A stretch of DNA of 17,382 bases from Alphaproteobacteria bacterium (GTDB lineage: Bacteria > Pseudomonadota > Alphaproteobacteria > UBA6615). Below the pieces are notes generated by a model that did not search any database, had not been told where the DNA came from, and saw nothing but the letters and a program-made list of their open reading frames with translations. Both the position numbers and the translations under genes were made by a program. This document shows, in pieces, positions 1 through 17,382 of this stretch (its first letter is position 1; each line of letters starts with the position of its first letter). The stretch lies in assembly GCA_965261975.1 (NCBI GenBank), contig CBDHEC010000020.1:1-17382 (forward strand). The letters run 5' to 3'.

Positions 1-103
1 GCGGATCGGGGAACGGTTCGGCAATTCGAAATACTCGTTAAAATAGAATCATATATAGTAACAATCGCTGTGAGATTGCTGACTTAATGTCGTGAGCCCT
101 CGA

Positions 104-526
104 ATGTCAGATGAAAGATTCGGGCGATCTGGTGCACGCCTGCTCTACTTTGACGTGGAGCCCGTCTCGTGCATGCGTGCGATCGATGCGGCCGAGGATT
201 TGCGTCTTCATATCGAGACGGCATCCCACCCCAAGGCGCTGCATGACGCCTGCCGGACGTTCAGACCATCGGCTGTCCTGGCGGTATTGCACCCGGGCGA
301 CTTGCAGGCCCTTCGGGTCATCGCTGTCATATCTGTCGCTGGGCCCCGGATTCCCGTCCTGGTTGCCGGCGATATGGACATTGGCCTGGACCGGGTGCTT
401 CGGGGGAAGGTGAAGTCGCTCGGCCTCGACGTGCGCGGCAGCGTGCAACTGGGCGGAAGCCAGCGCGATCTTCAACTTGCGCTGTTGTGCGCCGTTACCG
501 GTCTGGATAGGGAACCGGTTGTCTAG
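104..526 (+). CDS. Degenerate CheY-like receiver-domain protein (probable pseudo-receiver)
   Basis: The ORF is open from GTG 92 or ATG 104. The segments RLLYFDVEP, FRPSAVLAVLHPGD, IPVLVAG and LGLDVRGSVQL follow the beta1/beta3/beta4/beta5 pattern of single-domain response regulators, but the phospho-Asp, Thr/Ser and Lys are missing. Confidence 0.5.
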   Translation: MSDERFGRSGARLLYFDVEPVSCMRAIDAAEDLRLHIETASHPKALHDACRTFRPSAVLAVLHPGDLQALRVIAVISVAGPRIPVLVAGDMDIGLDRVLRGKVKSLGLDVRGSVQLGGSQRDLQLALLCAVTGLDREPVV

Positions 527-634
527 CCGGCTGGTCGCATCGCTTTACAGCGAATTGCCAAAGTCCCTAAGCTTCTCGCCGAAGTCACGATGAAACAATG
601 ACAACGCCGAAACAGGCGTGGCGAGGGGGGCAGG

Positions 635-1864: not shown

Positions 1865-1909
1865 TTCAGCCGGGCCTTGCGGACCATCAAGCAACGAGGG
1901 CGACGCGGG

Positions 1910-2761
1910 ATGCATCCTGCGCTGCGCCATGGCCTGTTGCTCGCGTGGCTGGTCATCGTCGTGTTTCCGCTGTTCTGGATCGTCGCAACATCATTCAAAC
2001 CACCACAGGATTGGAATGCGCGCCCCGCTGTCTGGTGGCCGTCTGAACCCACCCTGTTCAACTATGTCCAGGTCTGGGTGAATGATTTTGCGACGGGTAT
2101 TGGCGTTCCCGGCGGCGGGACCGAGGTCATCGGGCCTTGGGGGGCTTTGATCAACACCTTCACCATCGCGCTGATATCGTCCAGCATCGCGACCGTGTTC
2201 GGCGCCGTGGTCGCCTACGGTGCGTCCCGGTACAGAATTCTCAGCGATTCCCAGCTGTTGTACTTCCTGATGCTGCGCATGATCCCGCCATTCGTGGTCG
2301 CAGCGCCCGTGTTTCTGTGGTTCTCGGCCTTGGGGATCGAGGACACGCTCATCGGCCTGATCATGCTCTACACGTTGATCACCGTGCCGTACGCCATGCT
2401 GGTCATGAAGAGCTTTATCGACGATGTGCCGCGTGAATTCGAACAGGCCGCGGAGATTCTCGGCGCCGGGCGCTGGCGAATAATCTGGGAGATCGTTTTT
2501 CCATTGTTGCGCCCGGGTCTGGCAGCGACGTTCCTGTTTCTCTTTATCCTGAACTGGAGCGAATATTATTTCGCCCTGATCCTTTCCAAGACCGATGTCT
2601 CGACCCTGCCGGTGCATCTCAACCGTTGGGTGGGAAATAGTGGCGCGAACGGGTTTCAGGCTGCGCTGTCCGTGGGGGCAACGCTGCCGCTCCTGGTGAT
2701 CGGTCTGCTGATCCGCAAGCATCTTGTCCGCGGCTTGAGCTTCGGTTTCGTGCGGCGGTGA
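1910..2761 (+). CDS. Carbohydrate ABC transporter permease (MalG/UgpE type)
   Basis: Hydrophobic helices, N-terminal FPLFWIVATSFKP, EAA loop DVPREFEQAAEILGA...IVFPLLRPG and C-terminal KHLVRGLSFG. ATG 1910 is preferred over TTG 1877. Confidence 0.9.
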   Translation: MHPALRHGLLLAWLVIVVFPLFWIVATSFKPPQDWNARPAVWWPSEPTLFNYVQVWVNDFATGIGVPGGGTEVIGPWGALINTFTIALISSSIATVFGAVVAYGASRYRILSDSQLLYFLMLRMIPPFVVAAPVFLWFSALGIEDTLIGLIMLYTLITVPYAMLVMKSFIDDVPREFEQAAEILGAGRWRIIWEIVFPLLRPGLAATFLFLFILNWSEYYFALILSKTDVSTLPVHLNRWVGNSGANGFQAALSVGATLPLLVIGLLIRKHLVRGLSFGFVRR

Positions 2762-2880
2762 AGATGACGACGTTTCACGTCTCATTCAGTGATCACCATG
2801 TTCGATGATAGTCCCAAAGGGTTCTGATAGACGCTCTATTGCGGTAGGTTTCGGTCGTAGGACAACCCAGAGAGAGTGCA

Positions 2881-3933
2881 ATGAAGTTTGGATTGTTTGG
2901 CGGTGCGCAGGCCGTCCCCGGAGAGGTCGTGACGGAAGCCGCGCTCGGCTATCACGAGTATGGCGAATATATCCAGACTGCCGAGAAGCTCGGATATGAG
3001 AGCGCCTGGATGGTGGAGCACCATTTCACCGGATTTTCCCAGCTCTCAGCAACTCTTAACTACATCTCTTATCTATCTGGAATTACATCTAAAATAAGAC
3101 TTGGAAGCGCCGTGGTTGTGGTGCCTTGGCACAACCCGGTACTCCTCGCCGAACAGGTCGCGACCATCGATCAGCTGTCCAAGGGACGCTATGATTTCGG
3201 CATTGGCCGCGGCTACCGTGCGAACGAGTTCAATGGCTTCGGAATCGACATGTCCGAGGCCGAGGATATCTTCCAGGAATCGATTGCGTTCATGCGGCGC
3301 GCATTCACCGAAACCGAGCGCTGGACCTACAAGTCCGACCGGTACAGCTTCAATGACATCATCGTTGAACCGCCGGTGGTGCAACAGCCGCATCCGCCCA
3401 TGTGGGTCGGGGCAGGCAGCGAGAAATCCATTCGTGCCGCAGCGCGCAACGGATTCAACCTTCTGCTCGACCAGATGACACCCTTCGGGGGTATTGGCGA
3501 ACGGGTTCAGCAGTATCGCGATGAGCTCGAGAAGATGGGTAAGGATTTCGATCCCTACAGCATCGGTGTCACGCGTGGGCTGATGGTGGCCAATAACGAT
3601 AATGAGCGCAAAGACGCGCACATCCTGCGTGGCAAGTTCATTACAGAGGTGCAGGTCCTGTCCACGGACAAGCGGTACCAGGCCAAGGCGTTCAATCCGG
3701 TCGACGATAACGACGCCGAGGCCAGCGGAACGGACACGGTTTCGGAGAATGGCGCCGTGCTTGGAAATTCGGATGAAATGATCGAGCGTGTTCAGAAGCT
3801 CTACGACCTGGGTGTGCGGAATATCCTGCTGCACGATCTCAGCGGAAATTTCGAGGCGTTGCATCAGTTCGCCGAAGAGGTGATGCCGCACTTCGTCGAA
3901 AAGAATGACCCGGTGATCGCGGCAGCGGAATAG
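2881..3933 (+). CDS. LLM-class (luciferase-like) flavin-dependent oxidoreductase, copy 1
   Basis: Motifs MKFGLF, W-x-x-EHHF, RLGSAVVVVPWHNPVLLAEQVATIDQLSKGR, GRGY, PVVQQPHPPMWVG and FAEEVMPHF. Confidence 0.93.
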   Translation: MKFGLFGGAQAVPGEVVTEAALGYHEYGEYIQTAEKLGYESAWMVEHHFTGFSQLSATLNYISYLSGITSKIRLGSAVVVVPWHNPVLLAEQVATIDQLSKGRYDFGIGRGYRANEFNGFGIDMSEAEDIFQESIAFMRRAFTETERWTYKSDRYSFNDIIVEPPVVQQPHPPMWVGAGSEKSIRAAARNGFNLLLDQMTPFGGIGERVQQYRDELEKMGKDFDPYSIGVTRGLMVANNDNERKDAHILRGKFITEVQVLSTDKRYQAKAFNPVDDNDAEASGTDTVSENGAVLGNSDEMIERVQKLYDLGVRNILLHDLSGNFEALHQFAEEVMPHFVEKNDPVIAAAE

Positions 3934-3969
3934 TCGCCTGCTGAATCTGGCTGGCAGCGGAGGTGAATA

Positions 3970-5019
3970 ATGAAGTTTGGCTTGTTTGGCGGAGCACAGG
4001 CGGTCCCGGGTGAAGTCATCACCGAGGCGGCGCTCGGCTATCATGAATATGGCGAATATATTCAGGCAGCCGAGCGGCTGGGATACAGCAGCGCCTGGCT
4101 GGTCGAGCATCATTTCACCGGCTTTTCCCAGCTTTCCGCGACGCTTAATTACATTTCATATCTGGCCGGCATCACATCGAAAATCCGGCTTGGCAGCGCG
4201 GTCGTTGTGGTGCCCTGGCACAATCCGGTTCTGCTCGCCGAACAGGTTGCGACGATCGATCAGTTGTCCAAAGGACGCTACGACTTCGGTGTGGGTCGCG
4301 GATACCGGGCGAACGAGTATCACGGGTTCGGGCTCGAGATGGCCGATGGCCAGGATATCTTCGAGGAATCGATCAATTTCATGCGGCGTGCGTTCACCGA
4401 AACCGGGCGCTGGACCTACAAGTCGGACCGCTACACCTTCAACGACATCATTGTCGAGCCGCCTGTCGTCCAGAAACCCCATCCGCCCATGTGGGTCGGG
4501 GCGGCCAGCGAAGGCTCTATCCGCGGCGCGGCGCGCAACGGATATAATCTCCTGCTCGCGCAGGTGCCTTCGTTCGAGGCGATTGCGGAGAGCGTCAACT
4601 ACTATCGCGATGAACTCGACAAGATGGGCGAACCGTTTGATGCCAATCGGATCGCCGTCACCCGCGGTCTCATGGTCGCCAACAACGATGCCGAGCGCGC
4701 CGAGGCGCATGTGCTGCGCGGCAAGTTTCTGACCGAGGTGCAGGTGCTGGCCACCGATCCGCGTTTCCAGTCGAAGACCTTCGTGCCCGCAGCGCGCCAC
4801 AAGAACCGTGGAGATCCGACCGAGACATCCGAGGCCGGCGCGATCATCGGCAATTCCGAGGAAATGATCGAGCGGATCGAGCGGCTCTACGAGATCGGCG
4901 TGCGCGACGTGGCACTGCACGATCTGAGTGGCAACTTCGATGCGCTTCAGCAGTTTGCGGAAGAGGTCATGCCGCATTTCGCCGGTCGCGACGACGACAG
5001 TGTCGAGGCCGCGCAGTAG
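3970..5019 (+). CDS. LLM-class (luciferase-like) flavin-dependent oxidoreductase, copy 2
   Basis: Same motifs as copy 1 and roughly three-quarters identical to it by manual alignment. Strong RBS ggaggt upstream of ATG 3970. Confidence 0.93.
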   Translation: MKFGLFGGAQAVPGEVITEAALGYHEYGEYIQAAERLGYSSAWLVEHHFTGFSQLSATLNYISYLAGITSKIRLGSAVVVVPWHNPVLLAEQVATIDQLSKGRYDFGVGRGYRANEYHGFGLEMADGQDIFEESINFMRRAFTETGRWTYKSDRYTFNDIIVEPPVVQKPHPPMWVGAASEGSIRGAARNGYNLLLAQVPSFEAIAESVNYYRDELDKMGEPFDANRIAVTRGLMVANNDAERAEAHVLRGKFLTEVQVLATDPRFQSKTFVPAARHKNRGDPTETSEAGAIIGNSEEMIERIERLYEIGVRDVALHDLSGNFDALQQFAEEVMPHFAGRDDDSVEAAQ

Positions 5020-5154
5020 GCAGTTGCGTTCGAAACACGCCGTTCAAGCGGGCAAGCCAGAGTTTGCGCGGGACGCTCGCATTCCGGATGCGTTATCATC
5101 GGCACACAGTCGCTCGCGGCTACAGGGATTTTTTTATTGGGGGGAGTACGTCCC

Positions 5155-7488
5155 GTGGAAGATAGGATCTTTGGTACCGGCCCCTACGCCGTCAGCCAGC
5201 CGGTATCCCGAACCGAGGACCCGCGATTGCTGCGCGGCGACGGTGTCTATACCGACGACCGGAACCTCGATGGGCAGGCCTATGCGGTGTTCGTCCGTTC
5301 TTCTGTCGCCCACGGGGAGATCGCCAGCCTGGATGTCACGGCGGCGAAATCTGCACCGGGCGTCCTTTCTGTTCTTTCCCATGAGGACATCTCGGCGGCG
5401 GGGCTCGGCACGCTGCCGAATAATCTTCCGGTCAAGAGCCGTGACGGCAGCGCGCTGATCAAGCCCGCCCGCCCGATCCTCGCGACGGACCGCGTACGCC
5501 ATTTGGGCCAGCCGATCGTCGCGGTAATCGCGGAAACCGTTGCCCAGGCGCGCGATGCGGCGGAGCTTGTGGAGGTCGACATCAAGGCCCTGCCGGTGGT
5601 GAAGGGCCTCGACGCGGCCGTATCCGGCGGGGCGCCACAAATTCATGACGAGGCGGCCGGCAATGTGTGTCTGGACTTCCAGATGGGCGATGCCGATGCG
5701 ACGGCGGCGGCGTTTGATAAGGCGGCCCACGTCACGCGAATGCATCTGGTAAACAATCGCTGTTTCGTCTCCGCGATGGAGCCCCGTGCGGCGGTTGCTG
5801 ACTATGACGGTGATGCGGACCGGCACCTGCTTTATGTCTGCTGCCAGGGCGTGATGGGAATGCGCAACATCCTGGCGAACGCCATTTTCAACTGCGAGCC
5901 CGAGAAGATCCGCGTGATCACCGGCGACGTCGGCGGTTCCTTCGGCATGAAGGCGATGCCGTATCACGAATACCCGGTGATCATGCTCGCCGCCCAGCAA
6001 CTCGGTCGCCCGGTGAAGTGGACGGCAGACCGGAGTGAGAGTTGCATCTCCGACCATCAGGGGCGTGCCAGCCAGTTCGATGCCGAACTCGCCCTGGATG
6101 CCGACGGCAAGTTTCTCGCCGCCCGCGTCCACGGCCTCGCCGACATGGGCGGCTATCTGACCGGCACCGGTCCGCTCGCCCAGTCGGTCAACATCGGCAA
6201 GAACCTGCCCTGCATGTATGGCACCGCGGCCATCGACGTGAACATGAAATGCGTGTTCACGAACACGGTCTATGTCGGCGCCTATCGCGGCGCGGGGCGC
6301 CCCGAGGGCAATTTCATCATGGAGCGCCTGGTCGATACGGCCGCGCGCGAGATGGGGATCGACCGGATAGAACTGCGGCGCCGGAACCTGGTGCCGCCGT
6401 CGGCCATGCCGTTCACGGCCGCGAGCGGCCAGGTCTATGACAGCGGCGATTTCGAGCCGATGCTCGACAAGGCGGTTGCGGCATCCGACTGGTCCGGTTT
6501 CGCCGCCCGCAAGGCGGAATCCGAATCTCGCGGCATGAAGCGCGGCCTCGGTGTCTGTTCCTATCTCGAGGTGACTGCACCCCCCGGCAAGGAAAATGGC
6601 GGCCTGCGCTTCGGCGATGATGGCCGGGTGACGATGGTGTCCGGCACGCTGGATTATGGCCAGGGTCATCGCGCCACCTACGCGCAGATTGTCAGCGCGC
6701 GGCTCGGCATACCGTTCGACAAGTTGGACCTGTTGCAGGGCGATTCAGATGAGTTGCTGGTTGGCGGCGGGACCGGCGGGTCGCGTTCGGTCATCGCGGC
6801 CGGTGGCGCCTTCTACGAGGCCGCGGCGGCGGTCATCGAGAAGGGCAAGGCCGTCGCCAGCCATGTACTCGAGGCGGCGATCCAGGATATCGAATTTGCC
6901 GATGGCGAGTTTCGCATCTCCGGCACCGACCGCTCGATCGGTCTGCTGGAGCTGGGCGGCAAAACCCGCGAGCTGGGCGGCGCCGACGGCCTGCCGGATA
7001 GCCTCGACGTCGACCTGATCCATGACACCGCACCGTCATCCTTCCCGAACGGCGTTCATGTCGCAGAGGTCGAGATCGATCCGCAAACCGGCGAGACCGA
7101 GGTCGTGAAGTATACGGTTGTCGATGATTTCGGGAACGTCATCAATCCGTTGTTGGCCGCCGGGCAGGTGCATGGCGGGGTGGTACAGGGGATCGGCCAG
7201 GCCTTGATGGAAGATGTTGTCTATGACGATGACGGCCAGCTCATCACGGGCTCCTACATGGATTATGCCCTGCCACGTGCCGATCAGGTGCCGGACATCG
7301 TCTTCGACGAGCATCCCGTGCCGGCGAAAACCAACGTGCTGGGCGCCAAGGGCGCGGGAGAGGCCGGCGTGAGCGGAGCGTTGCCGGCGATCATGAATGC
7401 GATGGCGGATGCACTTGCCGAATATGGTGTCGACAACATCGACATGCCTGCGACACCCGAGAAGGTCTGGCGCGCCATTCATGGCTAG
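5155..7488 (+). CDS. Xanthine dehydrogenase family molybdopterin-binding (large) subunit, CoxL form II-like
   Basis: Motifs R-x-EDPRLLRG, AMEPR, DVGGSFGMK, AYRGAGRPE, GQGH, GTGGSRS, GQVHGGVVQGIGQAL and KGAGEAG. GTG 5155 follows a ggggag RBS and is preferred over TTG 5137. Confidence 0.93.
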   Translation: MEDRIFGTGPYAVSQPVSRTEDPRLLRGDGVYTDDRNLDGQAYAVFVRSSVAHGEIASLDVTAAKSAPGVLSVLSHEDISAAGLGTLPNNLPVKSRDGSALIKPARPILATDRVRHLGQPIVAVIAETVAQARDAAELVEVDIKALPVVKGLDAAVSGGAPQIHDEAAGNVCLDFQMGDADATAAAFDKAAHVTRMHLVNNRCFVSAMEPRAAVADYDGDADRHLLYVCCQGVMGMRNILANAIFNCEPEKIRVITGDVGGSFGMKAMPYHEYPVIMLAAQQLGRPVKWTADRSESCISDHQGRASQFDAELALDADGKFLAARVHGLADMGGYLTGTGPLAQSVNIGKNLPCMYGTAAIDVNMKCVFTNTVYVGAYRGAGRPEGNFIMERLVDTAAREMGIDRIELRRRNLVPPSAMPFTAASGQVYDSGDFEPMLDKAVAASDWSGFAARKAESESRGMKRGLGVCSYLEVTAPPGKENGGLRFGDDGRVTMVSGTLDYGQGHRATYAQIVSARLGIPFDKLDLLQGDSDELLVGGGTGGSRSVIAAGGAFYEAAAAVIEKGKAVASHVLEAAIQDIEFADGEFRISGTDRSIGLLELGGKTRELGGADGLPDSLDVDLIHDTAPSSFPNGVHVAEVEIDPQTGETEVVKYTVVDDFGNVINPLLAAGQVHGGVVQGIGQALMEDVVYDDDGQLITGSYMDYALPRADQVPDIVFDEHPVPAKTNVLGAKGAGEAGVSGALPAIMNAMADALAEYGVDNIDMPATPEKVWRAIHG

Positions 7489-7503
7489 ATTCGGTCCGGC
7501 GCG

Positions 7504-8448
7504 ATGACGCTGGCAGCCCTGAACGACAGGATCGCGGCCATACCGGCCCCGGTTCGCGGTCTCTTGTTGATCGTGTTGGCGAGCGCATTTTTCGCCAGCA
7601 TGCACAACACGATCCGTTTCCTGACCCAGACGTCGGATATTCACCCCTTTGAGATGGCCTTCTTTCGGGTCGTCTTCGGGCTGATCGTGTTCATTCCGTT
7701 TTTCATTCGGTCGGGGGTCGGCATCCTGCGCACCGAGAAGCTGACATGGCATGTCGGGCGCGCCTTCATCAACGCAACATCCATGTTGTCCTGGTTCATG
7801 GCGCTCAAGCTGATGCCGGTTGCCGATGCGACGGCCGTCAGCCTGATCGGCCCGGTCTTCGTTGCGATCCTTGCCATGGTTTTCCTCGGCGAACATGTCG
7901 GCCGTATGCGGTGGCTGGGGATTTTCCTGGCGATTGCCGGCGGATTGATTGTCGTCCGGCCGGGATTCACGGAGATCAGTTCGGGAGTCTGGCTGGTCCT
8001 GTTCTCGGCCGTTGCCGTCTCAAATTCCAAGCTGATCGCCAAGATTCTTACCCGCCACGATGGCCCGACCACGATCGTCGCCTACATGACGATCCTGATG
8101 ATCCCGATCACCTTTGTTCCTGCCTTCTTTGTCTGGCAGACGCCAACGCTGGAACAGCTCGGATTCATGGCCTTGATCGGGGTTTTCGGGACCCTCGGTC
8201 ATCTCCTGTTCGTCCAGGCTTACAAGCTGGCTGATATGAGCCTCGTCGAGCCGGCGATGTTCACCCGCATGATCTGGGCGGCGTTGATCAGCCTGATCCT
8301 GTTTTCCGAGTTTCCCACCCCCTGGACGTGGGCCGGCGCGGGCGTAATTGTCATCGGCACGACGTTGCTGGCACGCAACGAGGCCCGGCGCGAACCGCGG
8401 CGGGCCGACCCCAATGCCTCGACAGTCGATCCAAGTCCGAGTGATTGA
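7504..8448 (+). CDS. DMT/EamA family transporter
   Basis: About 10 hydrophobic helices in two EamA repeats, with motifs HPFEMAFFR, MPVADATA, FLGEHVG and LFSEFP. Confidence 0.9.
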   Translation: MTLAALNDRIAAIPAPVRGLLLIVLASAFFASMHNTIRFLTQTSDIHPFEMAFFRVVFGLIVFIPFFIRSGVGILRTEKLTWHVGRAFINATSMLSWFMALKLMPVADATAVSLIGPVFVAILAMVFLGEHVGRMRWLGIFLAIAGGLIVVRPGFTEISSGVWLVLFSAVAVSNSKLIAKILTRHDGPTTIVAYMTILMIPITFVPAFFVWQTPTLEQLGFMALIGVFGTLGHLLFVQAYKLADMSLVEPAMFTRMIWAALISLILFSEFPTPWTWAGAGVIVIGTTLLARNEARREPRRADPNASTVDPSPSD

Positions 8449-8477
8449 TTGGGCGCGCGGAAAAATCCCTGTAAAGT
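8449..8477 (+). promoter_or_regulatory. Possible sigma70 promoter for the Gfo-hydratase pair
   Basis: TTGGGC (8449-8454), 17-nt spacer, TAAAGT (8472-8477) in a 100-bp intergenic gap. The -35 match is weak. Confidence 0.25.
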
Positions 8478-8548
8478 GCGCGCGAAGGCGGTCAATCGAC
8501 CTTCTGAATACTCACTAGATAAAAATCCAGTTTTTGGGAGAGTTTTGA

Positions 8549-9688
8549 ATGGCAGAAAAGAAGCAGCTCGGCCTGGCGGTCGTGGGGTGTGGTGTCGTCG
8601 GGCGGATGCGCGCGGAACTGGCGCGGGATTTCCCGGGGATAGGCTGGATCGGCCTGAGCGACGTCAACGAGAAGGTTATGAACCAGCTCGGCGAGGACAT
8701 CGACGCCGATTTCACCACCAATGATTTTCGCGAGCTGATCGCACGCCCGGAAGTGGATGCCGTGATCGTCGCCACTTCGACCTGGGCCCATGTGGAGCCC
8801 ACACTGGCCGCGGTCGAGCAGGGGCATATGCTGTTCATCGAGAAGCCGCTGGCGACGGACGCGCGCGAATCCGCACAGATTCTCGCCGCCATCGAAGCGG
8901 CCGGCGTTGATGCGGTTGTCGGCTACACCCAGCGTTTCCGCCGCCGTTTCCTTTCGGTCAAGGAACGGATCGAGACCGGTCAGATCGGCGACTTCACGGC
9001 CGCCGTCGTGCGCGCCTTCATGAACCGCATGGCCCCGACAGGCGAGACGCGCCTGACCCAGGACCGCCGCTTCCTGTCCCCGATGGTCGTGTCCGGCACC
9101 CACTCGCTCGACATGGCCTTCTGGCTCATGGGCGAGGCGGGCAATCCTGTCTCGGTCTACTCCAAGTCGACGGACAAGATTTTGCATGACGAGCTGGGCA
9201 TCAAGGACGCGACGTTCGGCATCTTTCATATGGCAGATGGGTCGATGTTCTCCATGAACATCTGCTGGGCATTGCCCAAAGTCTGGCCGGGCGCGGTCTA
9301 TGGCTTGGAGATCGGCATCGTCGGCACCGAGGGCATCATCGACATCGAGGATACCCATCGCGATGTCGTCTTTGCCTCAGACCATCATGCACAGGGCCCC
9401 GCCTACCAGCCCGACGGCCTGAGCATCGAGGCCAGGCGCAGCGTGGAATTCATGACCAGTTTCCCGCCGGGCGATACCCATGGTGGTGAGCTCTGGGGAC
9501 CGATGCGAGAGGAGACCAACACCTGGTTCCAGCGCATCTACAACAAGAAGCAGACGCCCCATGCCACCGCGGCCGAGGGCCATCGTAACCTGATGCTGAC
9601 CATGGCCATGGATCTCTCATCCAAGACCGGCAAGGAAATCAAGCTGCCGATCTCGCCGGAAGATCTGATGGAAGGCCTCGAGGCCTAG
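8549..9688 (+). CDS. Gfo/Idh/MocA family NAD(P)-dependent oxidoreductase
   Basis: Rossmann motif VVGCGVVG, plus VDAVIVAT...H, FIEKP, VGYTQRF, GTHSLD and IVGTEG. RBS gggag. Confidence 0.92.
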   Translation: MAEKKQLGLAVVGCGVVGRMRAELARDFPGIGWIGLSDVNEKVMNQLGEDIDADFTTNDFRELIARPEVDAVIVATSTWAHVEPTLAAVEQGHMLFIEKPLATDARESAQILAAIEAAGVDAVVGYTQRFRRRFLSVKERIETGQIGDFTAAVVRAFMNRMAPTGETRLTQDRRFLSPMVVSGTHSLDMAFWLMGEAGNPVSVYSKSTDKILHDELGIKDATFGIFHMADGSMFSMNICWALPKVWPGAVYGLEIGIVGTEGIIDIEDTHRDVVFASDHHAQGPAYQPDGLSIEARRSVEFMTSFPPGDTHGGELWGPMREETNTWFQRIYNKKQTPHATAAEGHRNLMLTMAMDLSSKTGKEIKLPISPEDLMEGLEA

Positions 9689-9700
9689 CGGGGGTAGCGG

Positions 9701-10561
9701 ATGTCGGAAGACTTGCCAGCCTGGGTCGGGCGCAGCGAGACCCGGGAGGACATTGTCGGCGTGGAGCGCTGCGTGGCCATGCAGGCAGCGCTGGATTCGT
9801 CCGTCTTCGGCGGTGCGGATCAGCTGGCGGCGGGCGATGCCCTGCCACCGCTCTGGCACTGGCTCTATTTCTGGGACATCGCCGCGCGGTCGGGCCTCGG
9901 CCGTGACGGCCACCCGGCCCTCTCGGGCGAGTTCCTGCCGCCCGTCGGGCCCGCGCGGCGCATGTGGGCGGGCAGCCGTGTGTCGTTTCCGGGCACCCTG
10001 ACGCTCGGCGAGCCGGCGACGCGGGTCTCGACCATCGACAAGATTGCGGAGAAAGAAGGCCGCAGCGGTCGCCTGGTCTTCGTCACGGTGCGTCATGAGG
10101 TTTCCGGCAGCGGGGGGCTCGCTGTCGTCGACGAGCATGACATCGTCTATCGCGAAGACACCGGCGAGGCCGGTGCGACGGCCCGGCCGGGCGAGCCGGC
10201 TCCCGACGATGCCGACTGGAGCGAACCCGTCGACCCGGACCCGACCCTGCTGTTTCGTTATTCGGCGATCACCTTCAACGGTCACCGTATCCACTACGAC
10301 CGCGACTATGCGCGAGACGTGGAGGGCTATGGCGGGCTCGTCGTCCATGGGCCGTTGCTCGCCACATATATGTGCGGACTGGCAGGTCATTCATGGTCGG
10401 ACCGTCCGGTGGCGGGGTTCGAGTTTCGTGGCATGCGGCCGGTCTTCGATACCGAGGCCTTCACCGTTTGCGGCAAGGCGGACGGCGATGATGCAATCGA
10501 TGTCTGGGTCGCCAACGGCGACGGGCATCTGGCGATGAAGGGACGAACAACGTTCGCGTAA
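9701..10561 (+). CDS. Double-hotdog (MaoC/HTD2-like) acyl-CoA hydratase of the itaconyl-CoA/mesaconyl-C4-CoA hydratase family
   Basis: Motifs LPPLWHWLYF, LGRDGHP, RRMWAG, KEGRSGRLVFV, LFRYSAITFNGHRIHYD and LVVHGPL. Confidence 0.88.
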   Translation: MSEDLPAWVGRSETREDIVGVERCVAMQAALDSSVFGGADQLAAGDALPPLWHWLYFWDIAARSGLGRDGHPALSGEFLPPVGPARRMWAGSRVSFPGTLTLGEPATRVSTIDKIAEKEGRSGRLVFVTVRHEVSGSGGLAVVDEHDIVYREDTGEAGATARPGEPAPDDADWSEPVDPDPTLLFRYSAITFNGHRIHYDRDYARDVEGYGGLVVHGPLLATYMCGLAGHSWSDRPVAGFEFRGMRPVFDTEAFTVCGKADGDDAIDVWVANGDGHLAMKGRTTFA

Positions 10562-10565
10562 CGGG

Positions 10566-11594
10566 CTAGATCGCGACAAGCTCGCGGATCAAATCCATGT
10601 TGCACGCGCCGGGCTCGATCTCGCCGGCATGTATCCGGCGGGTCACCTCGACGATCGCCTGGCTGGCCGGGGCTGTTTGTCCGGCCGAGACTAGCGTCTC
10701 CGCAACGATACCGTTGATGCCATCGGTCTCGCTCATGCGGCCCTTCGAATGGTCCTGCAGGATGGTCGTCGGCGTGTCGGGCAGGGTGAAGGATTCGAGT
10801 TTCTCGACCAGCAGTTCGAGCAGGTTGTTGGCGTTCTCGATCTCGGATTGCTTCAGCCCGACGATGGGCACCGGCTTGTAGCCGCGCGCCTCTCCGGCCG
10901 CCAGGGCCTCGGCACCGGCCTTGAGCATCAGGCCGCGCATGCCGGGGATCTCGTAGGACTCGTTTAGTCCTGAGCCCAGCAACGCGGCGGTCGCCAAAGT
11001 CATGGAATTCATCACCAGCTTCATCCACTTGGCCGACAGGATGTCGTCGACGATCTCGACCTCGCCCACATGACGCAGAAGTTCCGCGACTTCTTCCTCG
11101 CGGCCGTTCGTTGCCGGATGGACGCTGCCGAGCGCGAACCATGATCCGTTGTCCGGCGGCGAGCGCCGGATCACCACGCCCGGGCCCTCCAGTTCGCCCG
11201 CCAGCTCGATGACGCAGGGCAGGGTGCGTTCGGGGCCGACCACCTCGGCGATGGTCTCCGCCGTCATCCCGTTTTGCACCCCGATGAGCAGGCCGTCCGG
11301 GGCGAGGTGAGGCTTGATGAGTTCTGCCGCCCAGCGGGAGTCGTAGGCCTTGAACAGCATCAGCACGATGTCGAAGGGCTCGGTGAATGTCGCGATGTCG
11401 CACAGGTGATAGGCGTCGACATTTGTGTGAATGGTCTCGCCGGGCATTTTGACCGTCACGCCATTGGCGCGCATGGTTTCTACATGTTCGGGCCACTGGT
11501 CGATCAGCTTCACGTCGAGCCCTGCGCGGGCCAGGTCCGCCCCGATGGCCGCCCCGTTGGCGCCGGAGCCCAGGATGGCGACGCGTTTGGTCAC
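10566..11594 (-). CDS. Ketopantoate reductase (PanE/ApbA) family oxidoreductase, substrate uncertain
   Basis: Motifs ILGSGANG, DQWPEHV, KAYD, QNG, KWMKLVMN (catalytic Lys) and LQD...GRMSETDGING. GTG start at 11594. Confidence 0.87.
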   Translation of the reverse strand: MTKRVAILGSGANGAAIGADLARAGLDVKLIDQWPEHVETMRANGVTVKMPGETIHTNVDAYHLCDIATFTEPFDIVLMLFKAYDSRWAAELIKPHLAPDGLLIGVQNGMTAETIAEVVGPERTLPCVIELAGELEGPGVVIRRSPPDNGSWFALGSVHPATNGREEEVAELLRHVGEVEIVDDILSAKWMKLVMNSMTLATAALLGSGLNESYEIPGMRGLMLKAGAEALAAGEARGYKPVPIVGLKQSEIENANNLLELLVEKLESFTLPDTPTTILQDHSKGRMSETDGINGIVAETLVSAGQTAPASQAIVEVTRRIHAGEIEPGACNMDLIRELVAI

Positions 11595-11604
11595 TTGTGC
11601 GTTC

Positions 11605-12300
11605 TCACGCCAACGACTTCCCGAAACGCCAGCGGTGGATGTTGATTTCGCCGAATACGCCGCCCGCCGTCATGGGTTCGTTGGCGACGAGCAACTCCGC
11701 CGTATTCCGGTCGGCGACCTCGATAAGGAACAGGCTCCCGAGCAGGCCGGTCCCGTCATCGCTGCGCAGCGGGCCGTGGGCAAAGTAGCGCTCGATGAGC
11801 GAGCCCTGATAGTCGTGATGGTCGGCGGCGGTTTTGGGGCGCAGGCTCGCGGCGTCGGGCCCGTCGAGGCATTCGCAAACGAACAGCTGTAAATCCGGGT
11901 CGGGGTCCCGGTCGTAGTATTTCAGGCGCTTGGAACTGACGAACCGGGTAATGGTCGCGGGCTCCAGCATGCCGGCCTTCGCGTAGCCGTCGCCGGAGAC
12001 ATATTCTTCCGCCGCGGCTCTATCCGGCAGCTCGATGATGCACATGGTGCCGAGCGGTGTTGCCCCGTCGTCGCTCAGGATCGGCCCGGCGAAATGAACA
12101 TGGTCGCGATATCCGGCCTGGTAGGCGAGATGCGCCGCCATGGCCGCGTCGCGCTTTTCGGCAGCACCCGGGGCGTACATGGACCGGATGAACCATTGGG
12201 GCGGCTGGGCCAGGTAGTAGTCCTGCAACGCCTGGCCCGACAGGCCGTAACGGGGGTCATCGGGCCGGTAGCCGCCGGGATTGGCGGGGTCACCAACCAT
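11605..12300 (-). CDS. Tandem two-domain YciI family protein
   Basis: Two internally similar units: R..AMAAHLAY...AGPILSDDG...GTMCIIE..DRAAAE...DGY and R..TAADHHDY...HGPLRSDDG...GSLFLIE..DRNTAE...EPM. The ATG lies 1 nt after the GST stop codon. Confidence 0.85.
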   Translation of the reverse strand: MVGDPANPGGYRPDDPRYGLSGQALQDYYLAQPPQWFIRSMYAPGAAEKRDAAMAAHLAYQAGYRDHVHFAGPILSDDGATPLGTMCIIELPDRAAAEEYVSGDGYAKAGMLEPATITRFVSSKRLKYYDRDPDPDLQLFVCECLDGPDAASLRPKTAADHHDYQGSLIERYFAHGPLRSDDGTGLLGSLFLIEVADRNTAELLVANEPMTAGGVFGEINIHRWRFGKSLA

Positions 12301-12301
12301 C

Positions 12302-12994
12302 CTATTCGGCCGCGACCGTGTTCTCGAAGAATTCCCGCGCGTAGAGTTCGCGGCGGTGCAGATTGCCGATGAACTCCGCCTCGAAGTTGTCCGGCACCGC
12401 GCCGGTCACCCGTTCGTCGGCCATCAGTGTCTCTGCCCAGGCGCGGATCAGCGGGAAGTCCCGGAGCACGTCGTTCTTCAGCCCGTCGTCGATCAACAGA
12501 TAGCGTTGCAGGAAGGGCGCATAGGCCGCGTCCACCAGCGACAGGTCCGGTCCGTTGAAGAACGGCCCGTCATTGCCGCGCCCGGCGAGCGCACTCTCCA
12601 CCTTTTCCAGCACGGCCGGTGCGGCCTCGACCGCTGCCTCCATGTCTTCCCGGGTCTTCGCGTAGTGGATCTTGCTCAGCGCGCCCGCGAAGGTCGGCGT
12701 GAAGTCCGTCCATGCGCGGTTCTTGGCCCGGGCGATCGGGTCTTCCGGGTGCAGGCGCGGCGATACCACCTCGTCGAGATACTCGGCGATGGCGCTAGAC
12801 TCGAACAGGATCTCGTCATCGACCTTGAGGACGGGAACCTTGCCGTGGGGCGAGATTTCGAGGAACCAGTCGGGCTTCTCGCGGAGATTTATATAGGTGA
12901 CATCGAACTCGACATCTTTGGCGCGCAAAAGGATCACGGCGCGCTGGACCCATGGTCAGGTGAACGAGCTGATCAGGTGATACTTGACGGTCAT
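12302..12994 (-). CDS. Glutathione S-transferase (omega-like CP[FYW] type), 230 aa, probable selenoprotein with Sec13 encoded by an in-frame TGA
   Basis: Reads MTVKYHLISSFT-[TGA]-PWVQRAVILLRAKDVEF...KPDWFLEISPHGKVPVL...LFESSAIAEYLDE...SLVDAAYAP. The RBS aaggggg sits just before ATG 12994. The ORF track splits the gene into 12302-12937 and the tail of 12956-13999. Confidence 0.85.
12921..12958 (-). promoter_or_regulatory. UGA codon plus putative bacterial SECIS hairpin
   Basis: mRNA reads UGA CCAUGGGUCCA GCGCGC CGUGAUCCUUUU GCGCGC. There is an 11-nt spacer, a 6-bp GC stem (12944-12939 with 12926-12921) and a 12-nt loop with GU at loop positions 2-3. Confidence 0.6.
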
Positions 12995-13019
12995 GAATTC
13001 CCCCTTGGAAGCGGTGTAA

Positions 13020-13048
13020 ATCATAGGCCGCCAGTCGGCGACGGTCAA
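13020..13048 (-). promoter_or_regulatory. Sigma70-type promoter of the GST-YciI-PanE-like operon
   Basis: Minus strand TTGACC (13048-13043), 17-nt spacer, TATGAT (13025-13020). Each box matches consensus at 5 of 6 positions and the -10 box ends 25 nt upstream of ATG 12994. Confidence 0.7.
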
Positions 13049-13162
13049 AAATCGTCCGTGTTCCACCGCATGAGCTCTGACGATGTTGTGAGCGGTCAAT
13101 TGATTGGTCGCGGCCTGCAACCCGGCTAGCCTAATGGGAAATCGAACCTGCGGGAGAAGATC

Positions 13163-14017
13163 ATGAGCAAGAGCCTGAAACTTGCACTCATCGGCGCAGC
13201 CTCGCTTGCCGCCATGGCGGTGCCGGGGGTTGCCGGCGCCCAGCAGATTTCTGCCGTGGCCGACGGCATTCACGTCATCATGGGGCGCGGGGGCAATATT
13301 GGCGTCTCGGTCGGTGAGGACGGCGTCTTCATGATCGACGATCAGTTTGCACCCGCGACCCCGGCGATTCTCGAGCAGATCAGGACCGTCACCGATCAGC
13401 CGGTGCGCTTCCTCGTGAACACCCATTTCCACCGTGATCACACCGGCGGCAATGAGAATCTCGGCAAGGCCGGGGTGCTCATTTTCGCCCATGACAATGT
13501 CTGCGCGCGCCTGCTCGCCGCGGATGCCCCCAAGGCCGCGTTGCCCGTCGTGACCTTCAACGACGCCACCACATTCCATATGAACGGCCAGACGGTGCGT
13601 GTGTTTCACACGGCGAACGCCCACACGGACGGCGATGCGATGATCCATTTCCAGGAGGCCGATGTCATCCACATGGGGGACACCTTCTTCAACGGTTTCT
13701 ACCCGTTCATCGATTCCCGCTCGGGAGGCTCGGTAGAGGGCGTATTCGCGACCATCGACACGGTCCTCGCCCTGGCCGACGACGACACGGTCATCATCCC
13801 GGGTCACGGGCCGGTTGCAAACCGCGCCGACCTGATCGTCTACCGCGACATGCTGATCAAGGCGCGTGACGGCATCATGCCCCTGATCGCGGACGGCAAG
13901 TCGGTGGAGGATATTATCGCGGCGAAACCCCTGGCCGATCTCGATGCGGATTGGGGCGGCGGGTTCCTGAACCGGGAACGGTTCCTGCGGGTGATGCACG
14001 CGGCCCTGACGAAATAG
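13163..14017 (+). CDS. Secreted MBL-fold metallo-hydrolase (cyclase-like subgroup)
   Basis: Signal peptide MSKSLKLALIGAASLAAMAVPGVAGA, followed by GGNIG, IDDQF, NTHFHRDHTGGN (HxHxDH), HTDGD, HMGD and IPGHG. RBS gggaga. Confidence 0.92.
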   Translation: MSKSLKLALIGAASLAAMAVPGVAGAQQISAVADGIHVIMGRGGNIGVSVGEDGVFMIDDQFAPATPAILEQIRTVTDQPVRFLVNTHFHRDHTGGNENLGKAGVLIFAHDNVCARLLAADAPKAALPVVTFNDATTFHMNGQTVRVFHTANAHTDGDAMIHFQEADVIHMGDTFFNGFYPFIDSRSGGSVEGVFATIDTVLALADDDTVIIPGHGPVANRADLIVYRDMLIKARDGIMPLIADGKSVEDIIAAKPLADLDADWGGGFLNRERFLRVMHAALTK

Positions 14018-14048
14018 GCCGCGCTGCCCGCGATGAGTTCAGGCACGG

Positions 14049-14429
14049 TTAACTCGGGCAGTCTCTAAACCGCTGCAATGCGATGAGCGTGTCCCATCGC
14101 TCCTGAATGGCATCGAGGCGACGCTTTTCACCGGGGTTTTCCTTCGCCGCCACCAGGGGAAAAAGGAAGAGTCCGCCGAGGTAGCCTGCGACCTGGTTGC
14201 GCTTCCGGTTTCCCTTGATAACGCCGGTGAGTTTTCCGGCCTCGTCGGTGAGGGCCGCCTGCTCCGACACGATGGTAACGCAGGATTTGTCCAAATCCGC
14301 GCGTTCGAACTGGTCGGCGGAAAGCTTCGCGCTGGCGTTCACCGAGCCATAGTCGGGCGGTAGGTCCGGGGCGGACCGGGCACAGGCGGCCAGCAGCACG
14401 CCACCGGCAATGAGCAATATGAGACGCAT
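14049..14429 (-). CDS. Hypothetical lipoprotein
   Basis: Lipobox LLAA-C at residue 16, two further Cys (KSC, RDC) and a short hydrophobic GYLGGLFLFPLVAA segment. Confidence 0.7.
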   Translation of the reverse strand: MRLILLIAGGVLLAACARSAPDLPPDYGSVNASAKLSADQFERADLDKSCVTIVSEQAALTDEAGKLTGVIKGNRKRNQVAGYLGGLFLFPLVAAKENPGEKRRLDAIQERWDTLIALQRFRDCPS

Positions 14430-14430
14430 G

Positions 14431-14848
14431 CTACTGGACGAAGTAGACCGCGCGACCCTAACCGTCGAGGGACCCCCCAGCTGAACACCGAGACCCCGAC
14501 GGACCCATAACGGGTGAGGATGACGGCATCGGCACCCAACTCCGCGGCTTTATCGCGCAGGCGTTCGTCGACCATCGCGGGGGTCGGGTCGGCATTGAAG
14601 ATCGTCGTCTTGTTGACCGTGACCTTGATGTCCCCGATCACCTCATATTTGCGATCCTTGATGTCGTCCTTGGTGATGATCACCGCCGCGGCATTCGTGG
14701 CGGGGCGGTTGCTGGTGACTTGCTTGGGTTCATCCAGCGTCGATGTTTTGCTTTCGCCGGGCGCGCTGACGGATGTCGACGAATAGCTCGCGCACGCCGA
14801 CAGGGCGAACGCCATGGCCACAACTATACCGAGATTGCGAAACTTCAT
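14431..14848 (-). pseudogene. Disrupted lipoprotein with a YbjQ/RcsF-like domain (frameshift in a G6 run plus an in-frame TAG)
   Basis: Lipobox LSA-C, Ser/Thr linker, YEVIGDI and LRDKAAELGADAVI. Removing one G from the run at 14473-14478 gives WGSLDG*GRAVYFVQ*, ending at 14431, 1 nt before the next ATG. As written, the frame runs about 90 nt into the next gene. Confidence 0.65.
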
Positions 14849-14971
14849 CGGATAGCTCCCCAGGTTACGTGTCCGCTAAACTATGCCAGAGAAAATAGCA
14901 TATCGACCAGAGCGTAACCGAACCCGAAGATAACCTTTGCGTGCATGGCGGCCTTGCGCCTGAAGCAGGAA

Positions 14972-15868
14972 CTAGTCGCCGGATTCCGAGGGTGGTGTTT
15001 CTCTCGGAATGCCCGCCATCGCTTCCAGCACGGCGAGGATCGAGGCGGCATCCTGCTGTTGCCAGCCCTGAGCGCCGGCGGCGATATAGTAGGGCATCGC
15101 CGCGTCGAACATCGGCGTGGGGCAGTCGTGGGCCGCGGCGAAGTCGCGGATCACGTCCTTGTCCTTGAGCTGGATGGCGAGCTCCGCCGTCGGGTCGTCA
15201 TAGTCCCCCTTGATCCACTTGTCGGCACGGATATCGAACACCCGGGACGCCGCTGCGCTTTGCTTCACGGCATCCGCCATCAGCTGCAGGTCGACCCCGG
15301 CCTTGCGGGCCAGCAGGAATGCCTCCGCGCTCGCCATGTTGTGGATCGAGATCATCAGGTTGAGGATGTACTTGATCTTGGCGCTTTCGCCGAACCCGCC
15401 GACATGCAGCACGCTCTTGCAGAAACTTTCGAGCGCAGGTCGTACACGGTCGAATGCGTCTTCTTCGCCGCTTACGAGCATGGCCAGTTCGCCTGCCTGA
15501 GCCTGGGGACGTGCGCCACTGACCGGGCAATCGAGAAGGTCGATACCGGCGCGCGCGAGTTCCTCATGGGCGCCGCGTTTTTCCTCGATAGGGAATGTGC
15601 AGAGATCGGCAACCACGAGGCCCCGGCGGCCGGTGGCCGAAATGGCGGCGAGGGACGCCCGCCAGGCCGTCAGGGTGGCGACCGCGAGGACGATCAGGTC
15701 CGTGCGCGAGGCCACATCCGCCGCGTCGACACCTGCCTCGATACCCGCGGCCGAGATCCGCGCGGCGTCGGTGTCGTAACCGATGACCCGATGACCGGAG
15801 CCGGCGAGATTCTTCGCGACGCCGCCACCGATGTTTCCGAGTCCAACGACCCCAGCTGTCAGTGCCAT
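14972..15868 (-). CDS. Beta-hydroxyacid dehydrogenase (3-hydroxyisobutyrate dehydrogenase family), downstream copy
   Basis: Motifs GVVGLGNIGG, DLCT, LDCPVSG, KIKYILNL (catalytic Lys) and LKD. Confidence 0.9.
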   Translation of the reverse strand: MALTAGVVGLGNIGGGVAKNLAGSGHRVIGYDTDAARISAAGIEAGVDAADVASRTDLIVLAVATLTAWRASLAAISATGRRGLVVADLCTFPIEEKRGAHEELARAGIDLLDCPVSGARPQAQAGELAMLVSGEEDAFDRVRPALESFCKSVLHVGGFGESAKIKYILNLMISIHNMASAEAFLLARKAGVDLQLMADAVKQSAAASRVFDIRADKWIKGDYDDPTAELAIQLKDKDVIRDFAAAHDCPTPMFDAAMPYYIAAGAQGWQQQDAASILAVLEAMAGIPRETPPSESGD

Positions 15869-16791
15869 TACTTTTTCTTGCGGGCCGGGCGCTTCTTGCG
15901 CGGGATCCCGGCCATCTGTTCGTAGACGCGGGTGACCACGCCGGGGTCCTCCTGTCCGTAACCCTGGGCGAGAGCTGCGTAGGCGCTGAACATGCTCGCC
16001 TGGAACACGGGCACCGGGACGCTGAAGTCCTTGGCGTAATTCTCGATCAGGTTGTTGTCCTTGATCAGGACCGTCAGGTCGGCGGTCTTGGTTTTCGGGT
16101 TGTTGTAGTCGTCGGCCAGCATCAGGGGGCCGCGATATTCGATCACCCGGGAGTTGCCCGCCGAACGGGTCAGCGCCTCGGCGAACACATCGAGATCGAT
16201 GCCGGAGGCGCGGGCGAGTGTGATTGCTTCGGCGAAGGCCGCGCCGTGCACGCTGATCAACATGTTGATCAGCAGCTTGAGCCGCATGCCGTTGCCGAAG
16301 GGGCCGACGTAATACTGGACCATCGAGAAAGCCTCGAGGATCTCATGGACGGTCTTGAAGTCCTTCTTCGTGCCGCTCGCCATGGTCGTGATCTGGCCGG
16401 AGGCGGCCTGCTGGCCGGCGCCGGAGACGGGGCAATCCACCATGCTGGCGCCCTTTTTGGCGAGGGCTGCCTGAGCGCGTTCCTTGTCGGCGATATCGAG
16501 GGTCGAGGTCTCGATCAGGATCATGCCCTTATGCGCGCCCGCGAGGATCCCGGCCTTGCCCGTGACCACAGCATCGAGAATGGCTGCCGAGGTGAGGGAG
16601 GTGATCACGACGTCGGATTTGCGTGCCACGTCGGCAGCGCTCTTGCCTGCCTTGCCACCTGCCTTCACCAGGGCGTTCATCTTGGATTTGACCGGATCGT
16701 ATCCGGTGACCTTGAATCCGGCCTTGGCGATGTTGGCGGCGAACGCGCCCCCCATGATTCCCAGACCGACCACGCCAACGCGCAATGCCAT
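15868..16791 (-). CDS. Beta-hydroxyacid dehydrogenase (3-hydroxyisobutyrate dehydrogenase family), upstream copy
   Basis: Motifs GVVGLGIMGG, ETST, VDCPVSG, RLKLLINM and IKD. The stop overlaps the next start (TAATG at 15870-15866). Confidence 0.92.
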   Translation of the reverse strand: MALRVGVVGLGIMGGAFAANIAKAGFKVTGYDPVKSKMNALVKAGGKAGKSAADVARKSDVVITSLTSAAILDAVVTGKAGILAGAHKGMILIETSTLDIADKERAQAALAKKGASMVDCPVSGAGQQAASGQITTMASGTKKDFKTVHEILEAFSMVQYYVGPFGNGMRLKLLINMLISVHGAAFAEAITLARASGIDLDVFAEALTRSAGNSRVIEYRGPLMLADDYNNPKTKTADLTVLIKDNNLIENYAKDFSVPVPVFQASMFSAYAALAQGYGQEDPGVVTRVYEQMAGIPRKKRPARKKK

Positions 16792-16891
16792 GTTCCTTCT
16801 CCCCGATTTTGTTTTGTCGTTGCGGCGACTATAGCGGCTGGGCTGAAGGCCGCCTACACTTCAGCGGCAAGGGAACCGGGAGAAGCGGGCG

Positions 16892-17382
16892 ATGGCACAA
16901 ACCCAAGCTGCGAGTGAAGACGTAATTCTGATGCGCGATGATGCCGACGGCATCGCAACCCTGACTCTGAATCGGCCGGGGTCCGGCAACAGTCTTTCGC
17001 ATGCGCTGGTCGATGAACTTTCATCGATGCTGCGGCAGATCGCGAACGACGAGGATGTGCGGGTGGTGGTGCTGGCCGCGACGGGAAAGCATTTCTGCAC
17101 GGGCCATGACCTGCAGGAATCCATTGCGACCGAAACTGGAGACGAGAAACGCGCATCGAACGCGGCGTGTAACGCCATGATGCAGGCGATTGTCGCCCTG
17201 CCACAGCCGGTTATCGCCAAGGTGCATGGCACTGCCACCGCTTCGGGTTGCGAACTCATGGCGAGTTGCGACCTGGCCGTTGCCGCGCGCTCGGCGCGTT
17301 TCGCAACGCCGGGCGTGAATATCGGTTTCTGGTGTTACACGCCGCAGGTGGCCTTGAGCCGGGCCGTGTCGCGCAAGCATGC
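16892..17382 (+). CDS. Enoyl-CoA hydratase/crotonase family protein (ECHDC3-like), 3' end outside the window
   Basis: Absent from the ORF track because no stop codon falls in the window. Manual translation gives MAQTQAASEDVILMRDDADGIATLTLNRP...NSLS...VRVVVLAATGKHFCTGHDL...LPQPVIAKVHGTATASGCELMASCDLAVAA...FATPGVNIGFWCYTPQVALSRAV. Confidence 0.9.
   Translation, partial: MAQTQAASEDVILMRDDADGIATLTLNRPGSGNSLSHALVDELSSMLRQIANDEDVRVVVLAATGKHFCTGHDLQESIATETGDEKRASNAACNAMMQAIVALPQPVIAKVHGTATASGCELMASCDLAVAARSARFATPGVNIGFWCYTPQVALSRAVSRKH

Follow-up and report, generated by a model that had tools for sequence, protein, structure and literature searches.

Does a TGA near the start of an otherwise intact glutathione S-transferase (GST) gene end translation, or is it read as selenocysteine (Sec)? 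The question is raised by a 17,382-nucleotide (nt) stretch of an Alphaproteobacteria bacterium genome (GenBank assembly GCA_965261975.1, contig CBDHEC010000020.1, positions 1 to 17,382; hereafter the window), in which a GST gene on the minus strand carries a TGA at the codon of the catalytic cysteine (Cys). An earlier note on this DNA, made from the sequence alone, proposed that Sec is decoded at this codon, residue 13. The analysis described here agrees: Sec machinery is present in the genome, the TGA is conserved among orthologues and the hairpin that follows it is constrained, and the three tests that could have spoken against the proposal (a genome lacking Sec machinery, reads with TGC or TGT, a TGA private to this strain with no conserved hairpin) all came out in its favour. 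We are highly confident that this is a real selenoprotein gene with Sec at residue 13, and such doubt as there is concerns the proof of Sec insertion rather than the gene model.

The minus-strand frame runs from ATG 12994-12992 through one TGA (12958-12956, codon 13) to TAG 12304-12302, and its 5' end reads ATG ACC GTC AAG TAT CAC CTG ATC AGC TCG TTC ACC TGA CCA TGG GTC CAG CGC. With the TGA taken as U, the product is 230 amino acids (aa) long and has a single U, at residue 13, preceded by the N-terminal peptide M-T-V-K-Y-H-L-I-S-S-F-T and followed by P-W-V-Q-R. Every sequence statement of the earlier note on this frame, from ATG 12994 through the TGA into a complete GST, is correct. The open reading frame (ORF) found with translation table 11 is 12302..12937, which gives 211 aa from a GTG start, the codon of Val20. 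Modelled with AlphaFold2 from an alignment of 24 sequences, the protein takes a GST fold (mean pLDDT 88.3, pTM 0.86), with a beta-alpha-beta-alpha-beta-beta-alpha unit followed by helices. In the model, strand beta1 spans residues 5-10 and helix alpha1 residues 14-25, with residue 13 just before alpha1, so the short call loses beta1 and the active-site residue, as had been proposed, along with the first six residues of alpha1. The upstream signals were also said to point to ATG 12994; they are as described and recur in close orthologues. The promoter-like TTGACC-17-TATGAT is the sole such site in 12150-13200, where shuffles expect 0.3, and of the 14 closest loci with an orthologue (L019-L032), 13 have TTGACC and (C/G)TATGAT at an equal distance from the start, L025 being the exception. 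AGGGGG lies 5 nt 5' of the ATG, and close orthologues have a similar purine run ahead of theirs.

Conservation of the TGA can be assessed across genomes. Of 61 related genomes searched in six frames, 28 have an orthologue, at 59-95% identity and in every case with exactly one in-frame TGA. One orthologue is split across two contigs; in the 27 complete loci the TGA stands at the codon-13 column without exception, with (M)..K-Y-H-L-I-S-S-F-T before it and P-W-V-Q-R-A-V-I after. A second scan, of public metagenome-assembled genomes (MAGs) at one genome per species, added 80 loci at 57-94% identity from MAGs labelled Alphaproteobacteria, Rhodospirillaceae, Hyphomicrobiaceae, Defluviicoccus and Gammaproteobacteria; here codon 13 is TGA in 63, TGC in 11 and TGT in 6. 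After removal of identical genes there are 97 distinct orthologous genes, 80 Sec forms and 17 Cys forms. The Cys/TGA pairs that the earlier note suggested looking for with tblastn are thus found in one column (TGA 80, TGC or TGT 17), which alternates with Cys codons only. The expected motif C-P-[FYW]-V-Q-R is likewise recovered, as C-P-W-V-Q-R in 17/17 Cys forms; a paralogue in the same genome has C-P-F-A-Q-R. In a maximum-likelihood tree, 15 Cys forms make up one clade (support 99) and the two others stand separately; the Sec/Cys label takes at most three changes, just one of which is forced by well-supported branches. Paralogues at 35-41% identity in the related genomes have no in-frame stop, the single exception being a GST paralogue at G017:C13:31804-32418 (37% identity), with one TGA and one TAG in the match.

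The codons ahead of the TGA can be examined in the same alignment. At codons -8 to -3 of the Sec forms, counted from the TGA, the residues Y, H, L, I, S and S are kept in 74-80 of 80, while the synonymous changes mapped to the tree number 18, 20, 20, 3, 14 and 21, respectively. Because amino acids are kept while third positions change, a pattern seen over the 12 codons before the TGA, these codons encode a translated peptide under selection. This peptide is collinear with the N terminus of the full-length Cys forms.

Bacterial SECIS elements (Sec insertion sequences) lie inside the reading frame, just 3' of the UGA, and so does the hairpin found here. The earlier note described a GC stem beginning 11 nt past the UGA, with GU near the 5' side of its loop; both are as described, the loop starts CGUGAU, and the spacing may be compared with the 11 nt that the note gives for the E. 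coli fdhF SECIS. A perfect 6-bp stem with the CGUGAU loop start is present in 71/80 Sec forms and in 0/17 Cys forms, and cells are paired on the named structure in 97.3% of cases (67 distinct Sec rows) versus 82.3% (16 distinct Cys rows). Synonymous changes were counted in the Sec forms over 80 columns with a conserved amino acid of at least 3-fold degeneracy. Per sequence, the median column shows 0.276 changes, or about 22 in total, and the fewest are found at codons +6 Ala, +7 Val and +5 Arg, which build the stem and loop. Arg +5 is CGC in 76 of 80 Sec forms (gene-wide share 0.48; 3 tree changes), as against CGC 7, CGG 7, CGA 2 and CGT 1 in the 17 Cys forms (5 tree changes). Ala +6 is GCC in 78 (gene-wide share 0.50; 1 change), as against GCC 7, GCG 4, GCT 1 and Ser in 5 (4 changes). 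Val +7 is GTG in 77 (gene-wide share 0.39; 1 change), as against GTC 11, GTG 4 and GTT 1 (4 changes). The flanking Val codon +3 is unconstrained in the Sec forms (GTC 29, GTG 20, GTT 18, GTA 13). On the 3' arm, Arg +11 is CGY in 79/80 Sec forms, so that the pair stays G-C or G-U. The hairpin, whose conservation the earlier note raised as a point to settle, is therefore conserved and under constraint at the RNA level only where the codon is TGA.

According to the available passages of a 2026 review (PMC13188914), the bacterial SECIS model has 16-37 nt from the UGA to the apical loop, a minimum free energy of -7.5 kcal/mol or lower, a G within the first two loop positions followed by U, an apical loop of 3-9 nt and an upper stem of 4-16 bp. 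Measured against these passages, the window hairpin has 17 nt from UGA to loop, an energy of -10.3 kcal/mol and a loop that opens C-G-U, with G then U in the first positions. Its stem is 6 bp, and in members with Ala at codon +9 RNAfold gives a longer stem and a 7-nt loop, CGUGAUU.

The machinery for Sec decoding was sought as the earlier note had suggested, and selA, selB, selC (the tRNA-Sec gene) and selD all lie on one contig, C22, with scores above curated cut-offs (Table 1); like the gene structure, the UGA conservation, the Sec/Cys pairs and the RNA-level constraint, this is a direct observation. Among the related genomes, selA is present in 26/28 with the TGA gene and in 6/33 without it. 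It is also present in 3/3 distant Sec-form genomes and in 2/17 Cys-form genomes, whose completeness is not reported. The genome has at least one other selenoprotein gene, a SelW-like gene (Rdx family, 48.7 bits) at C47:134887-135078 on the minus strand, with one in-frame TGA in a C-K-I-U (C-x-x-U) motif. A SelB signature common to the genome's selenoproteins was considered and set aside, as the SelW-like and GST hairpins have no loop motif in common. A search with PF00384 for a Sec formate dehydrogenase gave 8 matches, none with an in-frame stop, and a genome-wide scan for CxxU/UxxC with a downstream hairpin was abandoned after returning 1073 candidates, mostly wrong-frame noise in this GC-rich genome.

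What else could the TGA be? Were it a real stop, the functional product would be the 211-aa protein from GTG 12937, and the 12 codons upstream a leader peptide or untranslated sequence. Gene callers do give this short product, both for the window contig (P0002) and for 16 aligned close homologues among 113 short calls in the best 120 database matches listed, and the GTG is conserved in the 77 Sec forms counted above. Such a protein would lack beta1, the C-P-W active-site motif and part of alpha1, whereas the 12 upstream codons are conserved as in-frame protein with free third positions and align collinearly with the N terminus of full-length Cys forms. The promoter and Shine-Dalgarno sites serve ATG 12994, with none before GTG 12937, and the Cys forms mostly have GTC at this codon (11/17). 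The GTG is conserved because it sits in the hairpin loop, and we hold a real stop to be extremely improbable. A pseudogene, or a TGA produced from TGY by an assembly or base-call error, was raised as a caveat in the earlier note in the form of a nonsense mutation or miscalled base. One transition or transversion is enough to turn TGC or TGT into TGA, and the genome is a draft of 59 contigs. The same TGA, however, occurs in 80 distinct genes from separate assemblies at 58-95% protein identity, which have no other in-frame stop and no frameshift, and the whole stretch is found in one contig of an independent sequencing run, and the near-identical run has no differing letters. We give this explanation next to no credence and take it to be refuted already by the comparative data.

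The UGA might alternatively be read without Sec-tRNA(Sec), by a near-cognate tRNA inserting Trp or Cys, or because UGA has been reassigned throughout the lineage. Bacteria do show a low level of UGA read-through by near-cognate tRNAs. Against this, UGA is still an ordinary stop in the family (the genes at loci L039 and L043 end in TGA), the TGA codon alternates only with Cys codons, its presence tracks selA, and the hairpin found at SECIS distance is constrained at its synonymous sites. This account is very improbable, and Sec insertion at codon 13 is the reading that we carry forward.

Several observations weigh against that reading and must be set beside the evidence for it. The Sec/Cys contrasts are not 17 independent observations, because the Cys forms represent 1 to 3 independent events on the tree. 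True covariation in the stem is thin: one pair (15-38) shows a double change, from G-C to A-U, in 2 rows, the non-sister genes L061 and L094, and the RNAalifold consensus is weak (-3.99 kcal/mol, covariation term -0.2). Two Arg-Ala dipeptides in helix alpha1 dictate part of the stem. The GST hairpin differs from bacterial SECIS elements in being partly set by protein sequence in this way, and in that Cys forms keep 82% of its pairs. Mean folding energy over a 40-nt piece is -11.8 kcal/mol in the 80 Sec forms and -13.0 in the 17 Cys forms. Folding energy was therefore rejected as a discriminator; it is uninformative because the arms are codons of those two dipeptides, which are encoded in both forms. 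The claim of bacterial SECIS geometry stands for position, 17-nt distance, G-U and energy and does not cleanly hold for the loop, which at 12 nt exceeds the 3-9 nt given in the available passages of PMC13188914; counting the lone G-U pair that RNAfold adds brings it to 8 nt. Rfam, searched with E up to 10 over 12800-13100, has no family match at the hairpin, the sole match there being a sub-threshold AdoCbl-II on the other strand. A selA match is absent in two genomes with the TGA gene, which are 85% and 77% complete. Literature searches found no experimental study of a natural Sec-GST, nor of selenium in the family. Contigs of two RNA libraries (two studies; relatives 90-95% alike) span the TGA, covering 12732-12996 and 12832-12993 with 35-38 letters 5' of it. 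These are a weak hint. They are contigs rather than reads, leave the rest of the gene without RNA cover and reveal nothing about expression or where a transcript ends; in them the base at the TGA is unread, and such libraries can hold DNA. Given how little covariation there is and how narrow the Cys sample is in phylogenetic terms, the case rests on Sec-specific freezing of synonymous sites.

With the gene model in hand, the class of the protein can be considered. Pfam matches are GST_N_2 (2.6e-19, residues 12-75), GST_N_3 (1.4e-17) and GST_C_2 (1.5e-09), with GST_C also matched; the best is PF13409. NCBIfam has no equivalog at cut-off, the best score being 55.1 bits against 150. The best solved relatives are 4ags (1.2e-27), 10ha (2.8e-26) and 8qll (2.2e-23), in a range that extends to 2.5e-20. 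The CPF cysteine aligns with residue 13 in Leishmania thiol-dependent reductase 1 (TDR1, 4ags), pyrimidodiazepine synthase (10ha), GST omega-1 (8qll, 1eem), a lambda GST (4pqh) and DHAR (5el8). Domain order and predicted fold are shared with these Cys-type enzymes, and the predicted nucleophile differs, Sec in U-P-W-V-Q-R instead of Cys in C-P-F. V53-P54 and E65-S66 are invariant in the 24 aligned sequences; we take this V-P turn and E-S pair to be glutathione-site residues. The gene very probably encodes a cysteine-type GST, a relative of TDR1 and of GSTs in the omega, lambda and DHAR classes, with Sec as its catalytic residue.

How such a protein could be made and work can be outlined. Transcription would start from the promoter at 13048-13020 and translation from ATG 12994. 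With the ribosome at UGA-13, the hairpin 11 nt 3' would recruit SelB with Sec-tRNA(Sec), and Sec would be inserted in place of termination; we infer both the SelB binding and the insertion, as well as the chemistry and substrate that follow. The Sec would then stand at the N-terminal end of alpha1, the nucleophile site of Cys-type GSTs. Judging from the class, the selenolate may attack a disulfide or oxidised substrate to give a selenenyl-sulfide with glutathione, which would then be resolved. The protein is thus most likely a glutathione-dependent reductase or thiol transferase working through a mixed selenenyl-sulfide with glutathione.

The hairpin may also say something about how such genes arise. 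Cys-type relatives carry both Arg-Ala dipeptides, with 82% of stem cells already paired. We suggest tentatively, as an idea that is somewhat more likely to fail than to hold, that the SECIS stem was derived from the Arg-Ala codons of helix alpha1 shared with Cys relatives, so that the Cys-form helix was pre-adapted to recoding. If so, fixing CGC-GCC-GUG (the stem and the C-G-U-G-A-U loop) together with a TGY to TGA change would suffice for the switch, and this would account for Sec/Cys flips with gain or loss of selA.

Selenoproteins of this kind have been predicted before. Available passages of a 2005 survey of the Sargasso Sea (PMC1088965) report a predicted GST selenoprotein family with 4 sequences, those of the GOS survey (PMC2398784) a GST family with 12 Sec sequences and 1,036 Cys homologues, and two reviews (PMC9312934 and PMC13188914) include the family in the parts available. 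In the 2026 review (PMC13188914), the passages at hand place it outside the 'Experimentally verified' block and describe nearly all such families as coming from bioinformatics and largely uncharacterised. The earlier note's statement that Sec-GST homologues have been predicted from marine metagenomes and are poorly characterised agrees with these portions of the surveys and reviews. The published 'GST-like' family, as far as these passages describe it, has a GST domain (COG0625 / PF13409), a single Sec and no UxxC motif, as here, and is known from marine bacteria, with abundant Cys homologues, by computation only. The window gene is a further member of this previously predicted GST selenoprotein family, and its subfamily is likely to be the published one. 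SECIS anatomy, gene context and Sec position do not appear in the passages available on the published family and are added here.

Public protein records show what the TGA does to annotation. Among the best 120 database matches listed, 113 are 207-217 aa long, with 85-93% query cover and 70-100% identity, and where these have a name it is 'glutathione S-transferase' or 'glutathione S-transferase family protein'; the other 7 are full-length proteins at 63-67% identity. Of these 120, 23 were aligned, the 7 full-length proteins and 16 close short calls. Column 13 is Cys in each of the 7 full-length proteins, whereas the 16 short calls begin only at Val20 or Met/Leu23, apart from one that begins at residue 17. 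Gene callers find a false start because the conserved GTG lies in the hairpin loop. Public gene calls for the family are thus systematically wrong, the aligned 16 beginning at or near the hairpin-loop GTG and lacking the active site, and any functional or structural inference from such records is drawn from a dead fragment. Marine and other Alphaproteobacteria carry the family, as do some Gammaproteobacteria, and its Sec/Cys state tracks selA. It offers a clean natural system for asking what selenium gives a glutathione transferase, and its Sec-specific, invariant hairpin motif is a concrete element for mutation.

Table 1. Features of the Sec-GST locus in the window and of the Sec machinery on contig C22
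Feature	Position	Strand	Details
Predicted Sec-containing GST coding sequence	12302..12994	-	230 aa, Sec13; GST Pfam domains; orthologues in 28/61 related genomes
UGA codon 13, predicted Sec in place of catalytic Cys of C-P-x	12956..12958	-	conserved column, CPF alignment
SECIS-like hairpin	12921..12944	-	starts 11 nt past UGA
Hairpin parts	12944-12939; 12938-12927; 12926-12921	-	5' arm GCGCGC; loop CGUGAUCCUUUU; 3' arm GCGCGC
GTG, Val20 codon, within hairpin loop; false start of 211-aa call	12935..12937	-	
Promoter-like TTGACC-17-TATGAT	13020..13048	-	10/12 score
Shine-Dalgarno-like AAGGGGGA	12999..13006	-	5 nt before ATG 12994
Tandem YCII-domain gene	11605..12300	-	ATG 1 nt past GST stop; Pfam YCII 8.7e-24, 2 stretches
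Ketopantoate-reductase-like (ApbA/PanE) NAD(P) oxidoreductase gene	10566..11594	-	ApbA 4.1e-25, ApbA_C 6.6e-12
selA	contig C22 73288-74640		582.4 bits, cut-off 267.9
selB	contig C22 74667-76538		473.2 bits, cut-off 242.25
tRNA-Sec	contig C22 82623-82714		71.2 bits, cut-off 47
selD	contig C22 83976-84887		290.6 bits, cut-off 125

The neighbourhood of the gene differs between the two forms. The YCII gene lies directly downstream in 26/80 Sec-form loci, which all belong to the clade of the window gene, and in 0/17 Cys-form loci; the ApbA/PanE-like gene comes next after it in 18/80 Sec-form loci and in none of the Cys loci. The YCII gene is likely an operon partner of the GST gene, and the two neighbours together hint at a lineage-specific small-molecule pathway. 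On contig C22, the selD match occupies part of a 757-aa open frame (82740-85010), of which the SelD model covers 83976-84887 only, which points to a fused N-terminal domain some 400 aa long. The tRNA-Sec gene lies 26 nt upstream of that frame. About 3 kb from selD, on the minus strand at 87605-88429, is the Cys-type GST paralogue with C-P-F-A-Q-R, at 36% identity to the Sec-GST.

A 347-aa ORF at 12956..13999 on the minus strand ends in the Sec TGA in the same frame. It was rejected as a real gene: it has no Pfam match, lies antisense to a metallo-beta-lactamase-fold gene at 13163-14017 and has the appearance of a spurious, GC-rich artefact. The earlier note also mentioned another disrupted gene in the window. 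This may be the pair of ORFs (169 aa and 126 aa) at 14049-14848 on the minus strand, which overlap by 91 nt in different frames and have lipoprotein-like signals; the first has a Cys/Pro-rich tail unlike its remainder, neither has a Pfam match, and examination of 14049-14848 did not establish a disruption. Elsewhere in the window, a pair of neighbouring luciferase-like monooxygenase genes and, after them, a xanthine-dehydrogenase-family molybdopterin-binding subunit lie on the plus strand (2881-5019 and 5137-7488), and two adjacent 3-hydroxyisobutyrate-dehydrogenase-like genes lie on the minus strand at 14972-16791.

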